32,000 nt of DNA. Origin: Schaalia odontolytica. Its GTDB lineage: Bacteria; Actinomycetota; Actinomycetes; Actinomycetales; Actinomycetaceae. How positions within the stretch are numbered: the first letter of the stretch is position 1; every line of letters starts with the position of its first letter. The stretch covers positions 930,001 to 962,000 of the forward strand of contig NZ_CP040006.1 in NCBI RefSeq assembly GCF_005696695.1, written 5' to 3'. The position numbers and the translations under genes are program-made. Below the pieces are notes generated by a model, which saw only the letters and a list, made by a program, of their open reading frames with translations, was not told where the DNA came from and did not search any database. This document shows, piece after piece, positions 2,450 through 15,394 of this stretch.

Positions 2450-3084
2450 GCATCCTGCCGATCTGCATCACGGGCGAGCCGGTCCTGCACCGGGCCGCGG
2501 CACCAATCGAGTCCTTCGATTCGGAGCTGAGCGACCTCGTCGCCGACATGATCGAGACGATGCACGCCGCACCCGGCGTCGGCCTCGCCGCACCCCAGGT
2601 GGGCGTCGGCTCTCAAGTCTTCGTGTGGAGGTACGGCGGCGCCGGCTCCTTCGATTCCCACTACCGCGACGTCCTTCAGCTCGACGAGGCCCCCGCGTGC
2701 GGCTTCAACACGGCGCTGCACGGCGTCGTCGTCAACCCCACGCTCGACCTCGTGTGGGATACCGAAGGGGCGGGAGCCATCCTGCCCGAGGAACCCGACA
2801 TAGCGCTCGAATCCGAGGGCTGCCTGTCCGTGCCTGGCTACGGATACCCCCTGCGCCGCGCGCTCGGTGCGGTCCTGCGCGGCTACGACGTGGACGGCAA
2901 CGCCATCGAGGTCAGCGCGCGCGGATGGCTCGCGCGCATCTTCCAGCACGAATACGACCACCTGCAGGGCACCCTCTACGTCAACCGCCTCGAGGCACCC
3001 TACGCCGACGAGGCCCAGCGGGTCATCGCCGAGCGCGGATGGGGCGTCAGCGGACACACGTGGACCCCGGGGGAGCGGGCTTAA
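2446..3084 (+). CDS. def: Peptide deformylase
   Basis: All three deformylase motifs are present: GVGLAAPQ, EGCLSVPG, QHEYDHLQG. The ATG at 2446 overlaps the upstream TGA (ATGA). Confidence 0.9.
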   Translation: MSILPICITGEPVLHRAAAPIESFDSELSDLVADMIETMHAAPGVGLAAPQVGVGSQVFVWRYGGAGSFDSHYRDVLQLDEAPACGFNTALHGVVVNPTLDLVWDTEGAGAILPEEPDIALESEGCLSVPGYGYPLRRALGAVLRGYDVDGNAIEVSARGWLARIFQHEYDHLQGTLYVNRLEAPYADEAQRVIAERGWGVSGHTWTPGERA

Positions 3085-3101
3085 GCCGCTTCCTCCCGGG
3101 G
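3065..3101. terminator. Candidate bidirectional hairpin between convergent def and pflA
   Basis: The outer arm CCCCGG (3065-3070) pairs with CCGGGG (3096-3101). The inner region pairs imperfectly around the CTTAAG centre. There is no U-tract on either strand. Confidence 0.25.
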
Positions 3102-3117
3102 TCCCGGTACGTTCGCG

Positions 3118-3996
3118 TCAGTGGACCAGGAAGCCCAGCGAACGGAAGTAGTTGCGGACCTCCTCGGTGGCCTCGGGCGTGGGAGCCTTCGTGTCCTCCA
3201 GCTGATACTCCAGGCCGAGGGAGTGCCACTTATCCTTGCCCAGCTGATGGAAGGGCAGGACCTCAACGCGATCGATGACGTCCTTCCAGCGCGAGACAAT
3301 CTCGCCGACCTGGCGCACGTTCTCGGGGTCGTCGGTCAGACCCGGAACCAGGACGAAGCGGATCCAGATGCGGGTGGCGCCACCGCGAGCCGCGATGCGG
3401 TCGCCGAACTCGATCGTGGGCGCCAGGGAACGTCCCGTCGCCTTCTTGTAGGTCTCCTCGTTGCCGCTCTTGACGTCCAGGAGCACCAGGTCGATCGCGT
3501 CGAGCATCTCGTCGTCGCAGTTCGCGCCCAGGAACCCTGAGGTGTCGATGCAGGTGTGAACGCCCATCTCCTTGGCACCCATCAGAATTCGCTTGGCGAA
3601 CTGCGGCTGCATGAGGACCTCGCCGCCGGACAGGGTGATGCCGCCGTTCGTCGTGCGGAAAATGCGGCGGTAGCGGGCAATGCGGGAGAGCAGCTCCGTG
3701 TCTGACACGGGAGCGCCGTCCTTCATGAGGAAGGTGTCGGGGTTGTGGCAGTACAGGCAGCGCAGCGGGCAGCCGTTGAGGAACACCGTCATGCGCGTGC
3801 CGGGGCCGTCAACGGCGGTGACGAGCTCCCAGGAGTGAATGGAACCCAGCGTGCCCTCACGCATGCGGCGCAGACGCTCGGAGCGCTCCAGGTCCGTGAT
3901 CTCCTCCAGGCCTTCGACGCCGGCGCCGACGGTACGGGATTGGGGAGCTTGGAAGTCCTGCTCACGGAACGTGGGGAGAGCGAGGGGCTGCGACAT
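3118..3996 (-). CDS. pflA: Pyruvate formate-lyase activating enzyme (radical-SAM glycyl-radical activase)
   Basis: Radical-SAM cluster motif CPLRCLYCHN, DGPGTR and GGITLSGGE. RBS GAAGGAA lies just upstream of the ATG at 3996. It has a ~44-aa N-terminal extension relative to the E. coli PflA start as I recall it; an internal ATG at 3864 is an alternative start. Confidence 0.9.
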   Translation of the reverse strand: MSQPLALPTFREQDFQAPQSRTVGAGVEGLEEITDLERSERLRRMREGTLGSIHSWELVTAVDGPGTRMTVFLNGCPLRCLYCHNPDTFLMKDGAPVSDTELLSRIARYRRIFRTTNGGITLSGGEVLMQPQFAKRILMGAKEMGVHTCIDTSGFLGANCDDEMLDAIDLVLLDVKSGNEETYKKATGRSLAPTIEFGDRIAARGGATRIWIRFVLVPGLTDDPENVRQVGEIVSRWKDVIDRVEVLPFHQLGKDKWHSLGLEYQLEDTKAPTPEATEEVRNYFRSLGFLVH

Positions 3997-4133
3997 AATT
4001 CCTTCTTCGCGGTTGAGTGGGAGTGGTGGCCGTGATGGGAACGAGGCCGGGCTGCGTCAGCGGTGCGCGCCGACGTGGGCAGACATAGTAGTGGGGCGCC
4101 GAGCGTTGCCCGACGCCCCACTCCAATCAGCTA

Positions 4134-4385
4134 TCAGGCCGAGTGGTGGAAGGTGCGGGACAGGACGTCCAGCTGCTGCTCACGGGTGAGCTTGACGAAG
4201 TTAACGGCGTAGCCGGAAACGCGAACGGTCAGGTTCGGGTACTTCTCGGGGTGCTCCATGGCGTCCTTCAGCGTGGACTCCTCGAGAACGTTGATGTTCG
4301 CGTGGTACAGGCCCTCCTTGTCGCCGCGCTCTTCGCGGGCGGCCTTCATGTCGGCGAGGCGCTCTTCGTAGGTCTTGGTTGCCAT
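4134..4385 (-). CDS. grcA: Stand-alone glycyl-radical domain protein (GrcA/YfiD-like), 83 aa
   Basis: Contains the glycyl-radical motif [11 protein letters not shown] and the flanking [13 protein letters not shown] strong SD (AAAAGGAGAAAT) sits directly upstream of the ATG at 4385. The longer GTG-started ORF (4451) has no SD. Confidence 0.85.
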
Positions 4386-4444
4386 AACATTTCTCCTTTT
4401 GTGAGATTCCGGCGGTGCCGGTTTGGGCGGGTCGCGGTGCGGCT

Positions 4445-4499
4445 CACCCACGAGTGGTGGGTGGCGGGGATCAACACGGGTGGCGCATCGATCCCCGCC
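4445..4499 (-). other. Two adjacent stable hairpins in the pflB-grcA spacer
   Basis: Plus-strand coordinates. CACCCAC (4445-4451) pairs with GTGGGTG (4457-4463) across a 5-nt loop. GGCGGGGATC (4463-4472) pairs with GATCCCCGCC (4490-4499), a perfect 10 bp with a 17-nt loop. On the mRNA the 10-bp stem begins 9 nt after the pflB TGA. Confidence 0.6.
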
Positions 4500-4508
4500 G
4501 ATGGTGGA

Positions 4509-6614
4509 TCAGTAGCCCTTGGTGCCGTCGTAGGCGCAGGAATCGTCCGGAACGAAGCCGGCGTCGAGGATGCCGACCAGGTTCTGGATCTGCTCTTCCT
4601 TGGAGCGGCCCAGGCCCTGCGGGGTGATCGTGTTCGTCAGCGAGATGCCGTCGAGCGCGTCGTTGTAGTCCAGCTTGCCGACCGACAGCATGGAAGCGAC
4701 CATGCCGTGCGTGTCGATGCCGTTCTCCGGGTTCGCGCCGGGGGCGAAGGGGGTGCCCTTCTGGTGGCCCGACGGGAAGGAGCCGGTGGCCTTGCCGTAG
4801 ACGACGTTCGAGGTGATCGTCAGGACCGACTGGGTCGGGATCGCGTCGCGGTACATGGGGATGGCGCGGATCTTGTCCATGACGGTGTGGACGACGGTCG
4901 CGGCGATGTCGTCGGCGCGGTCATCGTCGTTGCCGTAGGTCGGGAAGTCGCCCTCGGTGCGGTAGTCGACGACCAGGCCGGTCTCGTCGCGGATCGGGTA
5001 GACCTTCGCGTACTTGATGGCGGCCAGCGAGTCGGCAACGATGGACAGACCGGCGATGCCGCAGCCCATGGTGCGAATGATCTCGGAGTCGTGCAGCGCC
5101 ATCTCGATGGACTCGTAGGCGTAGCGATCGTGGCAGTAGTGGATGATGTTGAGGGCCTCGACGTAGGTGCCAACGACCCAGTCCAGCATCTCCTCGTAGC
5201 GCTTCCACACGTCATCGAAGTCGAGCGGGCCGTCACCCTGGACGGGCTCGTAGCCTTCCATGACCTGCTTGCCGGTCATCTCGTCGCGGCCACCGTTGAT
5301 GGCGTAGAGCAGGGCCTTGGCGGCGTTCACACGCGCGCCGAAGAACTGCATCTGCTTGCCGACCTTCATGGGGGAGACGCAGCATGCGATGGCGGCGTCG
5401 TCGCCCCAGTGCGCGCGGATCTGCGGATCGGACTCGTACTGGATCGACGAGGTGTCGATCGAGATGCGGGCGCAGAACTCCTTGTAGCCGCGGGGCAGGT
5501 TCTCGTCCCAGAAGATGGTGATGTTCGGCTCGGGGGCCGGGCCGAGGTTGACCAGCGTCTGGAGCAGACGGAACGAGGTCTTGGTGACCAGCGTACGGCC
5601 GTCGTCGCCGAAGCCGGCGTCCGACCAGGTGGCCCAGTAGGGGTCGCCCGAGAAGATCTGGTCGTAGGCGATGGTGCGCAGGAAGCGGGTGATGCGCAGC
5701 TTGATGACGAGGGCGTCGATGATCTCCTGGGCGCCGGACTCATCCAGCGTGCCGTTCTTCAGATCGCGCTCGAAGTAGACATCGAAGAAGCCGGACAGGC
5801 GGCCGATCGACATGGCGGCGCCGTCCTGGGACTTCACGGAGGCCAGGTAGCCGAAGTAGGTCCACTGCACGGCCTCGTGCGCGTTGGTGGCCGGGCCGGA
5901 GATGTCGTAGCCGTAGGACTGCGCCAGGTTCTTCAGCTTCTTGAGGGCCTTGATCTGCTCGGAGTGCTCCTCGCGGTAACGCGCCCAGTGCTCGGAGAAG
6001 GGCTCGTTCGCGTAACGATCCTTGTCCTTTTCCTTCTCGGCGATGAGGTGGTCAACGCCGTAGAGGGCCACGCGGCGGTAGTCGCCGATGATGCGGCCAC
6101 GGCCGTAGGCGTCCGGCAGACCGGTGATGATGTGGGAGGAACGAGCAGCACGAATACGCGGCGTGTAGATATCGAAGACCGCATCGTTGTGGGTCTTGCG
6201 GTACTTGGTGAAGATCTTCTTCACCTCGGGGTTGTACTCCATGCCGGCCTCGTGAATGGCCGTCTCGACCATGCGCCAGCCGCCGTTCGGCATCATCGCG
6301 CGCTTCAGGGGGGCATCGGTCTGCAGGCCGACGATCACGTTGTCGTCCTCGCAGATGTAGCCGGGCTTGAAAGCATCGATGTCGGCGGGGGTGTCCGTGT
6401 CGATGTCGAGGATGCGCACCTTGCGCTCTTCGGAGAGGTACTTCTCTTCGAGAGTGTTCCACACGCGCAGGGTCTTCTCGGTCGGCCCTGCCAGGAACGA
6501 GGCGTCGCCCTCGTACGGGGTGTAGTTCAGCTGGATGAAATCACGAACGTCGATTTCATCGCACCAGTTACCCTTTACGAAACCTTCCCAGGCCTTCTGG
6601 TCTGCTGTCGTCAT
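4509..6614 (-). CDS. pflB: Formate C-acetyltransferase (pyruvate formate-lyase) catalytic portion, lacking the C-terminal glycyl-radical domain
   Basis: Catalytic Cys pair in AIACCVSPMKVGKQMQFFGARVN. It appears collinear with E. coli PflB (from memory) up to ...GILDAGF, then ends at a TGA (4509-4511) before any RVSGY motif. Start ATG at 6614 with RBS GAAGAGGAAGA. The 21 codons further upstream in the ORF track lack support. Confidence 0.9.
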   Translation of the reverse strand: MTTADQKAWEGFVKGNWCDEIDVRDFIQLNYTPYEGDASFLAGPTEKTLRVWNTLEEKYLSEERKVRILDIDTDTPADIDAFKPGYICEDDNVIVGLQTDAPLKRAMMPNGGWRMVETAIHEAGMEYNPEVKKIFTKYRKTHNDAVFDIYTPRIRAARSSHIITGLPDAYGRGRIIGDYRRVALYGVDHLIAEKEKDKDRYANEPFSEHWARYREEHSEQIKALKKLKNLAQSYGYDISGPATNAHEAVQWTYFGYLASVKSQDGAAMSIGRLSGFFDVYFERDLKNGTLDESGAQEIIDALVIKLRITRFLRTIAYDQIFSGDPYWATWSDAGFGDDGRTLVTKTSFRLLQTLVNLGPAPEPNITIFWDENLPRGYKEFCARISIDTSSIQYESDPQIRAHWGDDAAIACCVSPMKVGKQMQFFGARVNAAKALLYAINGGRDEMTGKQVMEGYEPVQGDGPLDFDDVWKRYEEMLDWVVGTYVEALNIIHYCHDRYAYESIEMALHDSEIIRTMGCGIAGLSIVADSLAAIKYAKVYPIRDETGLVVDYRTEGDFPTYGNDDDRADDIAATVVHTVMDKIRAIPMYRDAIPTQSVLTITSNVVYGKATGSFPSGHQKGTPFAPGANPENGIDTHGMVASMLSVGKLDYNDALDGISLTNTITPQGLGRSKEEQIQNLVGILDAGFVPDDSCAYDGTKGY

Positions 6615-6768
6615 TCTTCCTCTTCTCGGATGTCCGTATCCCGTTGTGGGGACGGTATGTTCGGAGCGAAGCTCCATGTGCGTCGGATTCCAACGCTTAG
6701 GCCCATTGTCCTACGGCTTGGGGGGTCTCCACAACCCATATCGACCGACAGTCTATGTTCTGTGTCTC

Positions 6769-6799
6769 AGGATATGGGCCCATAGTCTCTGTCGGTCAA
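6769..6799 (-). promoter_or_regulatory. Candidate pflB promoter with a 12-bp perfect palindrome in its spacer
   Basis: On the minus strand: TTGACC (plus 6794-6799), a 19-nt spacer, then TATCCT (plus 6769-6774). The palindrome TATGGGCCCATA (6773-6784) lies in the spacer and overlaps the -10. The spacing is longer than ideal, so this is tentative. Confidence 0.3.
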
Positions 6800-6800
6800 A

Positions 6801-6873
6801 TTGTGGGACCAAGGTCCTTAAGAGAAGGGAGGGGCTTTGACCGCCTACACTGGTACCAGTGCCCGTCCCACAA
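6801..6873 (+). promoter_or_regulatory. Structured region upstream of hom (long-range 9-bp dyad abutting the SD)
   Basis: TTGTGGGAC (6801-6809) is the exact reverse complement of GTCCCACAA (6865-6873). The 3' arm runs into the hom SD AAAGGAG (6872-6878). Internal palindromes are GGACCAAGGTCC (6806-6817) and CTGGTACCAG (6850-6859). Confidence 0.3.
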
Positions 6874-6888
6874 AGGAGAAAAAGTCCT

Positions 6889-8196
6889 ATGTCTGCACCC
6901 CGTCCTGTCCTCGGAGTTGGCGTTCTTGGAGCCGGAACCGTCGGTAGCCAGGTCATTCGCATTCTTCAGTCGAGTCGCGAGGATTTCGCCGCTCGCTCGG
7001 GCGCGGAGATGGAGGTGCGCCGCGTCCTCGTCCGCAATGTGGATGCCCCGCGTGACGCTCCGATCGACCGCGAGCTGCTGACGACCGACCCGGCCGAGGC
7101 GATCGACAACATGGATCTCGTCGTCGAGCTGATCGGCGGTATTGAGCCCGCTCGCACCCTCGTGCTGCGCGCCCTCAACCAGGGCATCTCGGTCGTCACC
7201 GGCAACAAGGCCCTCCTGGCCGCCCACGGTCCCGAGCTTTACGAGGCAGCCGCGTCTAACGGTGCCGACCTCTACTACGAGGCCGCCGTTGCGGGCGCCG
7301 TCCCCGTCGTGTACGGCCTGCGCGAGTCCCTCGCCGGCGACCGCATCACGACCGTCATGGGCATCGTCAACGGCACGACGAACTTCATCCTGGACGCGAT
7401 GAGCACCAAGGGGCTGAGCTACGAGGATGCTCTCAAGCAGGCGCAGGACCTCGGTTTCGCCGAGGCCGACCCCACCGCCGACGTCGAGGGTTTCGATGCA
7501 GCCGCCAAGTGCTCCATCCTGGCCTCCCTGGCCTTCCACACGCGCGTCGGCATTGACGACGTCGCTGTCGAAGGCATCTCGAGCATCACCAAGGAAGACA
7601 TGGAGGAGGCCGCTCGCGTCGGCCACACCATCAAGCTCCTGGCCATCGCCGAGCGCCGCATCGGCGAGGACGGTCGCGAGGGCGTCGCCATGCGCGTCCA
7701 CCCCGCACAGGTTCCCTCCGATCACCCGCTCGCTTCCGTCGACGGCGCTTTCAACGCGATCCTCGTTGAGGGCGAGGCCGCGGGTCGTCTCATGTTCTAC
7801 GGCCAGGGAGCGGGCGGCGCTCCCACGGCCTCGGCTGTTCTGTCCGACCTCGTCGCCGCGGCGCACCACCGCGCCTTCGGTGGGCATGCCCCGCGCGAGT
7901 CGGTCTACGCCCACCTGCCGATCCTCGATCCCGGCTCGACGCACACGCGTTACCAGATCCGCCTCCAGGTCGAGGACCGCCTCGGCGTCCTGTCCGACGT
8001 TGCCGGAATCTTCGCCCGCCACGGCGTCTCGATCCAGTCCGTGCACCAGCGCAACGACGAGGTGCCCGGTGCCTGCGTCATCGTCGTGACCAGCCACCGC
8101 GCCCGCGAGGCCGACCTGCGCGCCGTCGCACGTGCGTTGTCCGTCTCCGACGCGGTGCGCGAGGTGACCTCCACGATCCGCGTTGAGGGTGAGTGA
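6889..8196 (+). CDS. hom: Homoserine dehydrogenase
   Basis: N-terminal NAD(P)-binding motif VGVLGAGTVGSQV. The C-terminal region looks ACT-like (YQIRLQVEDRLGVLSDVAGIFARHGVSIQSV). ATG at 6889 is preceded by AAAGGAG. Confidence 0.92.
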   Translation: MSAPRPVLGVGVLGAGTVGSQVIRILQSSREDFAARSGAEMEVRRVLVRNVDAPRDAPIDRELLTTDPAEAIDNMDLVVELIGGIEPARTLVLRALNQGISVVTGNKALLAAHGPELYEAAASNGADLYYEAAVAGAVPVVYGLRESLAGDRITTVMGIVNGTTNFILDAMSTKGLSYEDALKQAQDLGFAEADPTADVEGFDAAAKCSILASLAFHTRVGIDDVAVEGISSITKEDMEEAARVGHTIKLLAIAERRIGEDGREGVAMRVHPAQVPSDHPLASVDGAFNAILVEGEAAGRLMFYGQGAGGAPTASAVLSDLVAAAHHRAFGGHAPRESVYAHLPILDPGSTHTRYQIRLQVEDRLGVLSDVAGIFARHGVSIQSVHQRNDEVPGACVIVVTSHRAREADLRAVARALSVSDAVREVTSTIRVEGE

Positions 8197-11215: not shown

Positions 11216-12388
11216 ATGGTGAACATGGCGCCGAATTCGATCAATGCGCAGGCGACACGGGAATCCTCGCGCCGGTCCTGGAGTGCTGCGCGCGGATCTC
11301 TGCGCCTCGTTCTTGGTCTATTTCTCTTGCTGGTGGCTCCCCTTCAGCTGGCGATCGCCATCTATGATCAGGCCCATCACGGGATGGGGGAGGCTGTGGA
11401 CTGGCCGAATTGGACCGGCTGGGTCATGGCGCTGTGCGGAATCGGAGTGCTGTGGCGCGGCGCTGATCTTCGGCGCTCGGGGCGTCAGAAAGTGACGATG
11501 ATCGCTGAGAAATGGGCTGCCTTGGAGAGCCGGCGGGCAGAGGTTGAGCGCGTGTTTTCCACGCTCGTCGGCGCAGGTTACTACGAGATCGGACTGACGG
11601 CGCGCCACGAGTGTGCCCGAGCCGAACGCGTCAGGGTTGGCGCTCGGATCGCCGAGCACAGGCCTCCGGGTTTCCTCGCGTCGCTCAGCGAGGCGTCGGC
11701 AGGCGCGGGGGATGAGATCCTTGCGCGGATGGAACGCCTGGCAGACGCGGATGCCGCGATCATGGCTGCGCGCGGCTTTTTCGCGCTCGCGCCCGGCTGG
11801 CGCGACGTGTGGAAGACCGAGGTCGGCCCGATCATCGAAGACCTGGACATACTCGACGACGTCGCAGACACCCTCGAAAGTGTCAATACGGACCCGCGAA
11901 TCCTGACGGACATTGAGGCTTTCAGGGAGCGCGTGGGGGATGACAAGGACACGGTGAACGACCTCGGGACACGCCTTGAGGGCGGGCAGATCGCTCCCAC
12001 TCAGGCCCTCGAAGAACTCGACCGGATCACCAACGAAGCGCGAGCACGCACCGCCGAGCTCATCGAGGAAACTCTCGCAACGGATGCCTCGGCGCAGGGA
12101 CGGCAACGCTACGCCCGATGGAAGAACACAGGCATCAGGCTCACCGCGGCGAACGCGGAGTACGACGCAGCCTATTGGAGCCAGGACGCGGACACTGACA
12201 TCGAGTACAACCCGGCGGCCACGATTCGACTGACCGCAAATTCAGCAGGCGTTGACCTGGAAGGGCTACCCGCTCCGGCGACCGGTATCCTCACGGCTGG
12301 CGGCTCGTCCGTCTATCTACTGCCCATGTACCTCGAGCAATACCTGAGCGACGACGTGGACGAGGCAGGCGGAGGCTCGTCGACCTGA
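11216..12388 (+). CDS. Two-TM membrane protein, paralog A of a three-gene family (no ectodomain; ~310-aa cytoplasmic module of unknown function)
   Basis: Coding is supported by three-way amino-acid conservation with the next two ORFs. TM1 is LRLVLGLFLLLVAPLQLAIAIY and TM2 is WTGWVMALCGIGVLW, followed by the basic stretch RGADLRRSGRQK. Shared motifs are FALAPGWRDVW..EVGPIIEDL and YNPAATIRLTANSAGVDL. The ATG at 11225 is an alternative start. Confidence 0.8.
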   Translation: MVNMAPNSINAQATRESSRRSWSAARGSLRLVLGLFLLLVAPLQLAIAIYDQAHHGMGEAVDWPNWTGWVMALCGIGVLWRGADLRRSGRQKVTMIAEKWAALESRRAEVERVFSTLVGAGYYEIGLTARHECARAERVRVGARIAEHRPPGFLASLSEASAGAGDEILARMERLADADAAIMAARGFFALAPGWRDVWKTEVGPIIEDLDILDDVADTLESVNTDPRILTDIEAFRERVGDDKDTVNDLGTRLEGGQIAPTQALEELDRITNEARARTAELIEETLATDASAQGRQRYARWKNTGIRLTAANAEYDAAYWSQDADTDIEYNPAATIRLTANSAGVDLEGLPAPATGILTAGGSSVYLLPMYLEQYLSDDVDEAGGGSST

Positions 12389-12478
12389 GGGCGGAAGCGA
12401 CATCTCATTGTCGTCGCTGCGGGTATCAGAGTGCTGAGCCAGCGCGCGCATGAGGTCGGACCGTGACACAGTGGATGC

Positions 12479-14143
12479 ATGACTTCAGTGACGACCGAAT
12501 CGGCAAACGAGGAACGCGGCCACATGACGGCGCGAGACGTGAAGCGCTCGGTGCGAGGGGTGGGCCGGATCCTGCTGGGCGTCGTCATGGCGATCTGCGT
12601 TCCCGTGTGGCTGGTGTTCTCCTTCGTTGAATTCACCCGGCCCACGGTGCCAGCCAGCGAACTCGTCGCGCCGTCTGTCGAGGTGCACGACGAGACGGGA
12701 AGCTTCGGGCCGGTCGACGGGCGAACGCTGACAGACGCCCTCGGCGACGTCACGTTCACGCGTCCCATCCACCTCGTCATCTTGTCAACGGATGACCTGG
12801 TGGACGACAACCTCGACGAGGCGACCCTCAAGTACGCGCGGGCCGGGCATAAGGAGTGGATCTCACCCAATGGGTACAAGTGGGCCGACGGCTACCTGAT
12901 CCTGTCGGTGTCGCCCACCCACCGCAAGGTGGGGACGTACTTCGGCGAGGACATCGCCCCGTTGCTGTCCGTGCAAGAGGAGATCCAGGACGCCGCGAAG
13001 GACGACTTCCGTGCGGGCCGCTGGAGTGCGGGGATCGTCGCCGCGGCCACGAAGGCTGCCGCAAACATCCCGAACGAGGCAGGCTACAGCATTAAGAACC
13101 GAGTCGTCTGGCCTCACTGGACGGGATGGCTGATCTCGCTTACGGGCATCGGCGTGCTCCTGCGCGGACGCAGCCTGCGCCGGACGGTACGAGAAAGCTC
13201 CGAGCGTATTGCTGAGGCGTGGAAGGAGATGGAGGGGCGTCGCTCGGAGGTGGATCGTGCTTTCCACTCGATCGTCGATGCGGGGCAATATAGCAAGGGG
13301 CTGACCGTGCGCTACGGGTGCGCTAACCAGGAGCGCAAGAAGGTGCGCGAGCGCGTCTCCGTCCTGCGATCCCCTGGGTTTTTCGGATCCCTCAGCGCCG
13401 GCGCGGCAAGCGAGCGAGAGGAACTGCTCGAAGATATCGAGCTGCTGTCGGCCGCCGATGACGCGATTTTCGCCGCCCGCGACTTTTTCGCGCTGGCTCC
13501 GGGGTGGCGCCATCTGTGGGACAACGAGGTGGGACCGGTCTTCGAAGACCTGTTAGCCGCGGATTCCATCTCAGTCAAGGTGCGCAACCGCGTCAAGAAG
13601 CGTCAAGTGAAGAACGCAGTCGAGGCCTTTAACCGCTGGACGAACGAGCAGCGGGACATCATCGTCGGACTCGGAACGAGCCTGGAGCGCGCGGAGATCA
13701 CTCTGGTGCAGGCTCTCGACGAGCTGGACCGAATCGCGAGCGAGTCTCGCGCGCGACTGACGAAGCTCATCGGGCAGGCACTCGTCGCCGACACTTCCTC
13801 GTCTGGGCGTCAGCGCTACGAGCATTGGGAAAGCAACAAGGGCGGTACCGTCAGCGCCAGCGAGGTGCTCTACAAGGGCACGTACCTGAGTGGCGGTGAC
13901 CACCATGAGTACAACCCCGCCTCGACGATCCGCCTGACCGCGAACTCTGCGGGTGTTCGCCTGACGGGCAAGGCTGCGGAGAAGTCCGGCCGTTTCCAGG
14001 CGAACAATGTGTCCGTCTGGGCGTATCCGACGTATCTCGATCGCTACGTGGACTACGAACCGTCCAGCTCCTCGACCAGTTCAGCGGACTACGGCTCATC
14101 CTCGGGTGGCTTCTCGGGTTCCGGCTCGTCCTCGTCCTTCTGA
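12479..14143 (+). CDS. TPM-domain membrane protein, paralog B (TM1 - extracytoplasmic TPM domain - TM2 - shared cytoplasmic module - Ser/Gly tail)
   Basis: Between TM1 (ILLGVVMAICVPVWLVFSFV) and TM2 (WTGWLISLTGIGVLL) lies a ~150-aa segment fitting the TPM/YgcG pattern (VHDETG...IHLVILSTDDL...WADGYLILSVSPTHRKVGTYFGEDI...DDFRAGRWSAGI). The C-terminal module is homologous to paralogs A and C. The tail is SSSSTSSADYGSSSGGFSGSGSSSSF. The ATG at 12524 is an alternative start. Confidence 0.85.
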   Translation: MTSVTTESANEERGHMTARDVKRSVRGVGRILLGVVMAICVPVWLVFSFVEFTRPTVPASELVAPSVEVHDETGSFGPVDGRTLTDALGDVTFTRPIHLVILSTDDLVDDNLDEATLKYARAGHKEWISPNGYKWADGYLILSVSPTHRKVGTYFGEDIAPLLSVQEEIQDAAKDDFRAGRWSAGIVAAATKAAANIPNEAGYSIKNRVVWPHWTGWLISLTGIGVLLRGRSLRRTVRESSERIAEAWKEMEGRRSEVDRAFHSIVDAGQYSKGLTVRYGCANQERKKVRERVSVLRSPGFFGSLSAGAASEREELLEDIELLSAADDAIFAARDFFALAPGWRHLWDNEVGPVFEDLLAADSISVKVRNRVKKRQVKNAVEAFNRWTNEQRDIIVGLGTSLERAEITLVQALDELDRIASESRARLTKLIGQALVADTSSSGRQRYEHWESNKGGTVSASEVLYKGTYLSGGDHHEYNPASTIRLTANSAGVRLTGKAAEKSGRFQANNVSVWAYPTYLDRYVDYEPSSSSTSSADYGSSSGGFSGSGSSSSF

Positions 14144-14194
14144 GTCCCATCGGGATACCGGGCAACTGAAGGCGATCCGTGCCAGAGTGGAGCC

Positions 14195-15394
14195 ATGACG
14201 TCTCAGGCAACGGAAACGATGAGTCACGCACCCCAGCATCCTCGCGCGGTCATGCGCAGCGCGCGAGGCTGTGCGCGCCTCCTGGCGGGTCTCGCCCTCT
14301 TTCTGGTGGCCCCCGTGTGGCTCGGCATCGCCGTGTCCGTCGGTGCATCGCACAGCATGCTGTGGCCCACCTGGTACGCGTGGGTGGCGACGCTCGCGGG
14401 CATCGGCCTGTGGGCGCGCGGGTGGATGCTGCGCCGCGTCGCCCGCGAGAACATGCGGAAGGCATCCGATGAGTGGGAGGCGCTCGAAAAGCGTCACCTG
14501 GAGGTCGAGCGTGCCTTTCTTCCACTCCTCGGGACCGGGCGCTACGACCGCGGTCTGACTGCGCGCCTCGAGGCAGCTCGGGCCGAGCACGAGAAACTTC
14601 GCGTTCGTCTTGCAACGGTGGTGACACCTCCGTTCCTCGCCTCGCTCAGCGCGGCAACAGCGTGGGAGGCGGATGAGATCGTCAAGGACTTCCACGGTCT
14701 GATGGATGCCCACGCCGCGATGATGGCCGCGCGCGATCTGTTCGCGCTGGCTCCTGCCTGGCGCAGGGTGTGGGAGAACGAGCTGGGGCCGGTGTACGAG
14801 GACCTAACCGTCGTCGAGACCATCACGCAAACTGTCCAGAGTAGAAGCATGGACCCGACCGTCCTCAGCATGGCTGCCTCCCTCGTGCTGTGGCTCGATG
14901 AGCAGCGCCTGGCTGTCAACGAGCTGGGGGCGAGTCTCGAGCGCGCGCAGATTGATCCTGCTGGGGCACTCACGCAGCTCGACCGCATCGCCGACGAGGC
15001 CAGGGTGCGGCTCGTGTGCCTCGTCGAGGCGGCTCTCGGTGCCGACACGTCCATGATTGGGCGGAGGCGTTACAAGCGCTGGAGGAAGGGCGCGGGGGAG
15101 AAGCTGCGCAGGAACGAGACATGCTACCTCGGCGCCTACCGGATCGCCGGCGTGACGTACACCTACAACCCCGCTCAGGCGATTCGCCTGACCGCAAACA
15201 GCGCGGGTATCAACCTCAAGGGGAGTGCGGCCCATTCCACCGCGCGCTTCACGGCGTTTGGCGCGGAGCTCTACGTGCCGCCCGCGTACCTCCATCGCTA
15301 CCTCGTGTGGGACGGAACCTCGCGGTACGGCTCCTCGCGAGCGAACTACCTGACGTCGGCCGCAAACCTCGATCCGCGCGGGCGCACACGCTGA
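14195..15394 (+). CDS. Two-TM membrane protein, paralog C of the three-gene family
   Basis: TM1 is ARLLAGLALFLVAPVWLGIAVSV and TM2 is WYAWVATLAGIGLWA, followed by the basic stretch RGWMLRRVAREN. Shared motifs are FALAPAWRRVW..ELGPVYEDL and YNPAQAIRLTANSAGINL. GGAG lies upstream of the ATG. Confidence 0.8.
   Translation: MTSQATETMSHAPQHPRAVMRSARGCARLLAGLALFLVAPVWLGIAVSVGASHSMLWPTWYAWVATLAGIGLWARGWMLRRVARENMRKASDEWEALEKRHLEVERAFLPLLGTGRYDRGLTARLEAARAEHEKLRVRLATVVTPPFLASLSAATAWEADEIVKDFHGLMDAHAAMMAARDLFALAPAWRRVWENELGPVYEDLTVVETITQTVQSRSMDPTVLSMAASLVLWLDEQRLAVNELGASLERAQIDPAGALTQLDRIADEARVRLVCLVEAALGADTSMIGRRRYKRWRKGAGEKLRRNETCYLGAYRIAGVTYTYNPAQAIRLTANSAGINLKGSAAHSTARFTAFGAELYVPPAYLHRYLVWDGTSRYGSSRANYLTSAANLDPRGRTR

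Follow-up and report, generated by a model that had tools for sequence, protein, structure and literature searches.

Pyruvate formate-lyase (PFL) is the founding glycyl radical enzyme. In the current picture it is one polypeptide with a radical of its own, and YfiD/GrcA serves as an emergency spare part (PMC13450708). A locus in a 32-kb stretch of the Schaalia odontolytica chromosome (positions 930,001 to 962,000 of NZ_CP040006.1; hereafter the window, whose numbering we use throughout) raises the question of what is encoded when the catalytic gene, pflB, stops short of the glycyl-radical domain and that domain is read from a small gene of its own, grcA2. The product could be an enzyme of two subunits, a spare part beside a relic, a fusion made by recoding, or a gene broken in nature or in sequencing. 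On comparative sequence evidence we favour the first, with a probability of roughly 0.8: the operon, in which pflB minus its radical domain, grcA2 and the activase gene pflA follow one another in that order on the minus strand, would encode an obligate two-subunit pyruvate formate-lyase. The parts of the locus are these:

4509..6614, minus strand: pflB without the glycyl-radical domain; 701 amino acids (aa), ATG at 6614, stop codon TGA at 4511-4509
4386..4508, minus strand: pflB-grcA2 spacer; 123 nt, in frame and stop-free here, with length, frame and sequence that differ among relatives
4392..4398, minus strand: Shine-Dalgarno (SD) sequence AAGGAGA, 6 nt 5' of the grcA2 ATG
4134..4385, minus strand: grcA2; 83 aa, ATG at 4385, stop codon at 4136-4134, radical motif RVSG58YAV
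3118..3996, minus strand: pflA; radical-SAM activase, 292 aa, cluster motif CPLRCLYC

The catalytic chain and the separate radical domain

PflB has the sequence of a PFL in every respect but one. It scores 999.7 bits against TIGR01255 (formate C-acetyltransferase), narrowly above the equivalog cutoff of 994.2 bits, and it carries the catalytic pair, Cys411-Cys412 in AIACCVSPM, as an earlier sequence-only reading of this DNA had noted for the ORF (open reading frame) at 6614..4509. Against solved PFLs it scores 879 bits with PDB 38lb and 877 bits with the E. coli enzyme, and the motifs GRGRIIGDYRR and QFFGAR are kept in the alignment with 38lb; the Pfam PFL-like model gives 674 bits. The radical glycine, however, is absent from this polypeptide, as there is no RVSGY in the 701-aa ORF. 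The chain ends with ...GILDAGFVPDDSCAYDGTKGY, which can also be written ...NLVGILDAGFVPDDSCAYDGTKGY, immediately before the TGA at 4511-4509. At the other end GAGGAAG precedes the start ATG at 6614, and an alternative ATG at 6677 would add 21 residues to which the relatives have nothing aligned.

What PflB lacks is found in the small ORF, and the division between the two is precise. Over the 744 positions of TIGR01255, PflB covers 1-682 and the small ORF 684-743, with neither gap nor overlap, and the 106 positions of the Pfam Gly_radical model are likewise divided, with PflB matching just 1-65 and the small ORF 53-106. Residues 7-689 of PflB align with E. coli PFL 9-695, and residues 22-82 of the small ORF align with PFL 698-758 (E = 4e-18) and with YfiD 67-126 (E = 9e-20 to the YfiD structure 6OWR). 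The alignment to PFL makes Gly58 the counterpart of Gly734. These alignments bear out the sequence-only reading on two points, that the stop falls where the E. coli radical domain begins and that the small ORF holds the motif RVSGYAV.

The small protein belongs to the GrcA2 family. Its score against NF008341 (autonomous glycyl radical cofactor GrcA2) is 165.9 bits where the curated cutoff is 145 bits, the match runs from end to end (residues 4-82 on profile positions 1-79 of 80), and the radical motif, the fold and the short N-terminus all agree with that assignment. The model for E. coli-type GrcA/YfiD (TIGR04365, spare_glycyl) gives 83.6 bits against a cutoff of 170 bits, with residues 16-82 on profile positions 59-125; the protein is 83 aa long as against about 127 aa for that type, and the adjoining PflB is without the RVSGY domain. 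Almost all of the 120 best GrcA2 relatives are 82-86 aa long and are named GrcA2 where the source gives a name. The closest entries, of 83 aa, come from Pauljensenia, Schaalia, Actinomyces, Corynebacterium, Micrococcales, Arachnia and Actinotignum. In Pauljensenia a protein with 99% identity already bears the name GrcA2 (RefSeq), and a cluster of 83-aa proteins with the same degree of identity to that of the window holds 423 member sequences (P0002).

GrcA2 consists of a conserved N-terminal helix (residues 5-19), a beta10 strand LYHANINV (26-33), the radical loop and, at the C-terminus, a helix. An AlphaFold2 model of the protein alone has a mean pLDDT (predicted local distance difference test) of 67.8; it places helices at 6-19, 36-44 and 68-82 and a hairpin at 53-62 with Gly58 at its tip, and leaves residues 21-32, including the would-be beta10 strand, unstructured. 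Foldseek lays the C-terminal 48 residues on E. coli PFL with a root-mean-square deviation of 1.5 A, and the best match is the YfiD NMR structure 6OWR.

The charged N-terminus of the small protein had been described as novel, but it turns out to be a conserved signature of the GrcA2 family. Among 113 homologues, in which RVSGYAV is invariant, T5 is present in 95%, Y/F6 in 100%, E8 in 90%, R9 in 100%, M13 in 99% and R17 in 97%, while residues 18-24 are variable and are followed by a near-invariant stretch. We write the motif as M-x-x-K-T-Y/F-E/D-E-R-L-A-x-M-K-A-x-R, which is our own reading of the alignment and not a published definition. The spacing Y6-L10-M13-R17 would suit one face of the predicted helix.

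Fused PFLs contain segments reminiscent of this N-terminus. Three of them (P0250, P0289 and P0363) read (K/R)T-x-EER-(I/V)-x-N-L just before beta10, which resembles GrcA2 residues 4-13 and lies at the same distance from the strand; examples at the collinear position are RTPEERIANL and KTEEDRRRNL. We considered whether the GrcA2 helix is a diverged duplicate of the pre-beta10 helix of PFL, and found the idea statistically unsupported, so that the likeness is a hint only. A hidden Markov model of the GrcA2 N-terminus run on PFLs gave only negative scores, at scattered places; in Smith-Waterman comparisons the pre-beta10 window is equalled or beaten by a median of 13-40% of the other windows of its protein; and the best hhalign match for the N-terminus lies away from the pre-beta10 helix, with P = 0.13.

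The third gene of the operon encodes a PFL activase. PflA scores 296 bits against TIGR02493, for which the cutoff is 231.75 bits, has Pfam Radical_SAM and Fer4_12 domains and carries the CxxxCxxC motif. The gene lies downstream of grcA2 in 15 of the 17 split loci examined.

Distribution and origin of the split

We kept 80 related genome loci for comparison. The same split, with a visible small ORF, is found in 35 loci besides that of the window, and in a 36th the contig breaks off. Their sources are Schaalia/Pauljensenia, Actinomyces, Arcanobacterium, Gleimia, Ancrocorticia, Rothia, a Trueperella-labelled record, Dermabacter, Brachybacterium, Helcobacillus, a Cellulomonadaceae metagenome-assembled genome (MAG), Tessaracoccus and Corynebacterium, and thus span at least 13 named Actinomycetota genera in several orders. 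Identity to the window is 99% for Schaalia sp. ORNL0103 and 98% for Pauljensenia and 'Actinomyces' genomes, and PflB is 81-99% identical to that of the window across the split loci. In the protein databases, too, the truncated form is common: the 120 best matches to a Corynebacterium PflB are mostly truncated forms of 675-724 aa, the remainder being fused forms of 755 aa from Cellulomonas and Micrococcales KH10. Many of the truncated proteins are labelled merely 'pyruvate formate lyase family protein'. A search of a representative library was dominated by PFL fragments truncated at contig ends and was unusable for counting stand-alone radical-domain families.

The sequence-only reading had suggested asking whether the TGA, the shared frame and the SD-ATG are conserved in relatives, and only the last of these is. 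In all 35 loci the small ORF begins with ATG behind an SD-like GGAG, AGGA or GGGG motif, and the ORFs are intact. The pflB stop is TGA in 24 loci, TAA in seven and TAG in four; the frame offset of the small ORF is 0 in 15, +1 in 16 and +2 in four; and the spacer ranges from -4 nt (an overlapping ATGA) to 139 nt. We conclude from these comparisons that the conserved feature is separate initiation, with no frame relationship. In the window pflB and grcA2 do share a frame, as had been observed (the coordinates at which the two stop codons start are multiples of 3), and the 41 codons of the spacer at 4508-4386 are without a stop, as had the SD AAGGAGA at 4398-4392 and the small gene's own ATG at 4385 been correctly read. 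However, given the varied stops and frames of the relatives, the shared frame is a coincidence. A shared frame has a chance of 1 in 3, and 41% of shuffles of this spacer (65% G+C) have no in-frame stop; being near chance expectation, a stop-free in-frame spacer carries little weight.

Comparison with fused enzymes indicates what was added when the gene was divided. In the fused relatives (Bifidobacterium, Oscillospiraceae HV4-5-C5C and the 755-aa Cellulomonas type) the sequence runs ...NLVGILDAG-(NGH/MQE)-GLYHANINV..., whereas in the split forms LDAG and GLYHANINV are separated by a short, usually acidic and variable PflB tail, a stop, a spacer that carries SD and ATG, and an N-terminus of 24 residues. 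In the window this extra material amounts to about 65 codons, which the fused relatives do not have.

All GrcA2-type split loci share this derived architecture and form one clade in a neighbour-joining tree of the catalytic core, with moderate bootstrap support (121/200). Their sister is the fused Cellulomonas/KH10/HV4 group, the two together receiving 200/200, and Bifidobacterium lies outside. It is therefore likely that the split arose once, from a fused ancestor of the LDAG type; the derived N-terminal motif that the GrcA2 proteins have in common argues independently for a single origin. The cassette also seems to have moved horizontally, since orders as far apart as Actinomycetales, Micrococcales, Mycobacteriales and Propionibacteriales have PflBs with 81-87% identity to one another while other Micrococcales have a different fused PFL type at about 66%; this suggestion is our own.

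A few individual records deserve mention. In Corynebacterium sp. Marseille-P4321 (L027, 1612-4095) pflB, a 45-nt spacer and grcA2 form one frame of 801 aa, with TAC where a close relative (L021) has TAG, and with the internal SD and ATG kept. This locus is nested in the split Corynebacterium clade, and for that reason it is either a secondary re-fusion or a sequencing or base-call error; no other re-fusion was found among the 120 best matches to Corynebacterium PflB. Oscillospiraceae bacterium HV4-5-C5C (L022), one of the nearest fused relatives that the split clade has, encodes in low-G+C DNA a fused PFL with 81% identity to the PflB of the window and with the actinobacterial GLYHANINV strand; this looks like a case of horizontal transfer across phyla. 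Two further records look like mislabelled or contaminated assemblies. One (L008), labelled Trueperella pyogenes, has the same spacer and small ORF as three uncultured Actinomyces loci (L006, L007 and L009), and near-identical PflB tails; the other (P0190), labelled Staphylococcus chromogenes, is a truncated PflB of 695 aa, 86% identical to a Corynebacterium protein.

The two-subunit enzyme and its rivals

In the mechanism that we propose, the 701-aa PflB would supply the barrel and Cys411/Cys412 but be without beta10 (the last strand of the barrel), the loop with the glycine and the C-terminal helix, all of which would come from the separately translated GrcA2. PflA would abstract hydrogen from Gly58 of GrcA2, GrcA2 would dock into PflB, and its glycyl radical would generate a thiyl radical on the cysteine pair, which would cleave pyruvate to acetyl-CoA and formate. 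The amphipathic N-terminal helix of GrcA2 (T5, Y/F6, R9, M13, R17) may act as an extra docking element, offsetting the absence of the residues equivalent to PFL 696-733, which E. coli YfiD needs. The natural PflB ends before that segment, so its partner is presumably recognised differently, and the N-terminal helix of GrcA2 is a candidate for this; it would then replace the recognition role both of PFL 696-733 and of the long N-terminus of YfiD.

In E. coli, supply of the radical domain in trans works. Once activated, the pair tPFL+YfiD matches the wild type in activity (PMC8683613), and GrcA is cited as rescuing PflB G734A in vivo (cited in PMC12338860). Closer to the present case, both A. 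naeslundii and S. odontolytica produce formate under anaerobic conditions and produce less of it in air, for which the authors credit an oxygen-sensitive PFL (PMC11904265); the A. naeslundii locus in our set (L010) is split.

The arrangement might also offer an advantage. After oxygen cleaves the chain at the radical glycine, just a 9-kDa subunit would have to be replaced, as against a 78-kDa enzyme, and a detachable radical domain could possibly be easier for the activase to reach. The sequence-only reading had proposed that the spare-part arrangement may be the default here. It was right in that a separate small radical protein is the norm (in 35 other loci, with its own ATG and SD and with both halves conserved), and it is plausible that the radical subunit could be replaced cheaply once oxygen has damaged it. 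We would characterise the Actinomycetota with the split as mostly facultatively anaerobic and largely host-associated. The replacement advantage fits the contrast between these largely facultative genera and the strictly anaerobic Bifidobacterium, whose enzyme is fused, although the facultative Cellulomonas is fused as well.

Several considerations weigh against a two-subunit enzyme. PFL residues 696-733 are a recognition element for YfiD, and their removal leaves no measurable YfiD binding and reduces radical installation 32-fold (PMC8683613). Because this loss weakens both binding and radical uptake, a bare split is not automatically efficient, and the contacts that we suppose to compensate for the missing segment are putative. 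In the literature that we searched, no GrcA2 system is put to a biochemical or genetic test. Our view of these genomes comprises the 32-kb window and the kept loci, leaving room for a full-length PFL elsewhere. Finally, the hairpin that lies between pflB and grcA2 (hairpin 1, described below) could lower grcA2 expression.

A full-length PFL elsewhere is central to one competing explanation, in which GrcA2 is a true spare part that rescues such an enzyme and the adjoining truncated PflB is a decaying or regulatory remnant. The NCBI family name, 'autonomous glycyl radical cofactor', points this way by analogy with E. coli GrcA, and most of the genome lies beyond the window. The truncated PflB is nevertheless intact and 81-99% identical over 36 loci in several orders, with the Cys-Cys pair and substrate-binding motifs kept, which amounts to purifying selection and not to decay. 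Moreover, grcA2 is always directly between split pflB and pflA, whereas E. coli grcA is away from pflB and accompanies a full-length PflB (general knowledge and PMC12338860), and among the 80 loci kept there is one PFL locus per listed genome, which is weak evidence. We consider this explanation improbable. Still more so is an ordinary full-length pflB interrupted by a nonsense mutation, be it a sequencing or assembly error or a recent pseudogene, which the sequence-only reading had named as grounds for refutation. A single TGA between two in-frame ORFs is what one would expect from it, but a nonsense mutation leaves PFL sequence on both sides, and what is found here is an insertion of about 65 codons made up of tail, spacer, SD, ATG and a conserved 24-aa N-terminus. 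Relatives keep the split with both ORFs intact, and it recurs in isolates independent of one another, in MAGs and in hundreds of contigs from metagenomes (cluster P0002, with its 423 members), which leaves the idea of damage next to no credibility.

The remaining rival is programmed recoding, in which the UGA at 4511-4509 would be read through or decoded as selenocysteine, with the hairpin as the signal, to give a fused PFL of about 825 aa; readthrough to such a fusion had been offered earlier as the more speculative alternative. Seen in the window alone it has some appeal, since a shared frame, 41 stop-free spacer codons and a 16-bp hairpin after the UGA all occur together. The comparison of loci refutes it as a conserved mechanism. 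Besides the use of all three stop codons and three frame offsets, the spacers of A. naeslundii and A. oris differ by one nucleotide (76 and 75 nt), relatives about 90% identical have a double stop TGA-TAG, the small ORF is out of frame in S. georgiae (93% identical), and spacers both in frame and free of stops occur in nine of the 35 split loci, about the chance rate. In Rothia hairpins are found behind TAA stops as well, and hairpin 1 is therefore not a recoding signal; no Rfam family matches it, and a tRNA scan of the window found no tRNA, tRNA-Sec included. In our view recoding is very improbable.

A two-subunit enzyme may be part of something more general, although here we are tentative and would put the odds a little below even. 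The radical domain of PFL may be a dissociable protein 'cofactor', charged by the activase and plugged into the catalytic subunit, here by a docking helix, with convergent use in Clostridia (GrcA3); the E. coli repair system would then be a special case of an arrangement that limits the cost of oxygen to 9 kDa.

Related systems, hairpins and neighbouring features

The nearest precedent is E. coli GrcA (YfiD), Knappe's 'autonomous glycyl radical cofactor', which is cited as acting on oxygen-cleaved PflB (Wagner et al. 2001, cited in PMC8683613). GrcA2 is 63% identical to the PFL C-terminus over 60 residues, and the two small proteins have in common the RVSGYAV glycine, activation by PflA and a radical acting in trans to the PflB cysteine pair, as far as these can be predicted for GrcA2. 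They differ in build and setting. E. coli GrcA has 127 aa with a disordered N-terminus of 60 residues, is encoded away from pflB, accompanies a full-length PflB and acts after damage only; GrcA2 of the window has 83 aa with a short, conserved and helical N-terminus, is encoded between pflB and pflA, and goes with a PflB that never has a radical domain. From the NF008341 family there is no difference at the level of sequence, and it is only that the family name implies a spare part where the gene context points to an obligate subunit.

The cut site is the same, within a few residues, as that of the engineered E. coli pair tPFL(1-695)+YfiD (Andorfer et al. 2021, PMC8683613), and it coincides with the boundary of YfiD 61-127 (PMC8683613). 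In contrast to what we propose for the natural pair, the binding of the engineered one is too weak for measurement and its radical uptake 32-fold lower (PMC8683613). The natural system has presumably evolved compensating contacts, and by comparison with the engineered pair the N-terminal helix of GrcA2 and the acidic PflB tail are candidates for them. The fused actinobacterial-type PFLs (Bifidobacterium, Cellulomonas, KH10, HV4-5-C5C) resemble the window enzyme in their catalytic part (70-82% identical) and their GLYHANINV strand, but are single polypeptides without the PflB tail, stop, SD or GrcA2 N-terminus.

A second natural split is found in Clostridia, where the radical domain is likewise a separate protein of about 77 aa just upstream of pflA (GrcA3, NCBIfam NF038360). 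The example in our set is locus L073, in the Clostridia MAG contig CAKVOK010000018:

3956-7320: split PFL; the large ORF ends ...ALGKDDKVFMGDIDLDMLKKED
6049-6222: 57-aa Cys-rich ORF
6265-6498: GrcA3, 77 aa (NF038360, 165 bits), followed by pflA

Here the cut is about 20 residues earlier, so that the helix QQIENLISLLDGY is in the small protein, and the Cys-rich ORF lies between the two genes, neither of which holds for the window. The PflB of this locus branches with Clostridium fused PFL, and on that ground we regard the GrcA3 split as of independent origin; by analogy it shows that the architecture is viable. Two PFLs of the GrcA3 type that have no radical domain are in the PDB, 38la (687 aa) and 38lb (739 aa), and the tail of 38lb aligns with that of L073. 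The PDB holds no small partner chain for either, and these unpublished-looking entries suggest that the Clostridial type is under study by others.

The components are thus already catalogued, as NCBIfam GrcA2 and GrcA3. Full-text literature searches turned up no publication about GrcA2, a naturally split PFL or GrcA in Actinomycetota, and a June 2026 review of glycyl radical enzymes presents YfiD as a spare part only and never mentions a natural split (PMC13450708). To judge from the loci compared here, the split PFL is a real, little-studied natural variant common to many Actinomycetota. The habitats of these Actinomycetota are oral, skin and urogenital. The natural split makes it testable how activase and barrel recognise a free radical domain; it raises the questions of why the engineered tPFL binds YfiD poorly at the same cut site and whether modularity cuts the cost of transient oxygen exposure in these habitats. 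For annotation, the truncated PflB could be mistaken for a defective enzyme and grcA2 for an optional repair factor. The PflB/GrcA2 pair may also lend itself, as a handy minimal system, to the engineering or study of glycyl radical enzymes.

Both spacers of the operon contain strong potential hairpins:

4463..4499, minus strand: hairpin 1; 16-bp, G+C-rich, begins 9 nt past the pflB stop, without a U-tract
4091..4121, minus strand: hairpin 2; strong, 13 nt past the grcA2 stop in the 137-nt grcA2-pflA spacer, without a U-tract

The 151-nt stretch 4530-4380, which includes hairpin 1, folds at -60.1 kcal/mol (z = -2.5), and the pflB-grcA2 spacer has z = -4.2. The stem of hairpin 1 is retained with loop changes in four loci (L001, L002, L004, L005), and wherever the spacer of another locus measures at least 85 nt, an unrelated strong hairpin occupies the same place (z from -2.2 to -7). 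No such hairpin was seen in the folded loci with spacers of 38-76 nt, and in some split loci only 4-12 nt separate pflB from grcA2, or the genes overlap. Hairpin 1 is, on this comparison, a lineage-variable addition outside the core design, which may serve as an attenuator or as a stabiliser of an RNA 3'-end. We ruled it out as a repeated REP-like element, as there is no second copy in the window. The grcA2-pflA spacer has a minimum free energy of -55.2 kcal/mol, and a hairpin-type Rfam match at 4083-4128 is spurious. A scan of 2800-7100 for consensus promoters and terminators found none.

Relative to E. coli-type activases, PflA is longer at its N-terminus by about 50 residues (residues 1-50, window 3846-3996), with the conserved motifs DQDF..AP and RSERL.RMREG.LGS.HSWE. 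This extension is common to split loci and to the fused Bifidobacterium and Cellulomonas loci, and is therefore not tied to the split.

The G+C content of the region is 66%, and antisense to pflB there is a stop-free ORF of 880 aa (window 4143-6785, plus strand). This is an artefact of the high G+C content and no gene, and it follows that long open frames mean little in this DNA. The locus itself is an ordinary chromosomal one, flanked on one side by genes for adenosine deaminase, a C26 amidotransferase and peptide deformylase and on the other by hom, thrB and rho. Downstream of rho, at 11216-15394 on the plus strand, ORFs of 390, 554 and 399 aa stand in a row, each matching DUF5129; this trio is a tandem paralogue array.

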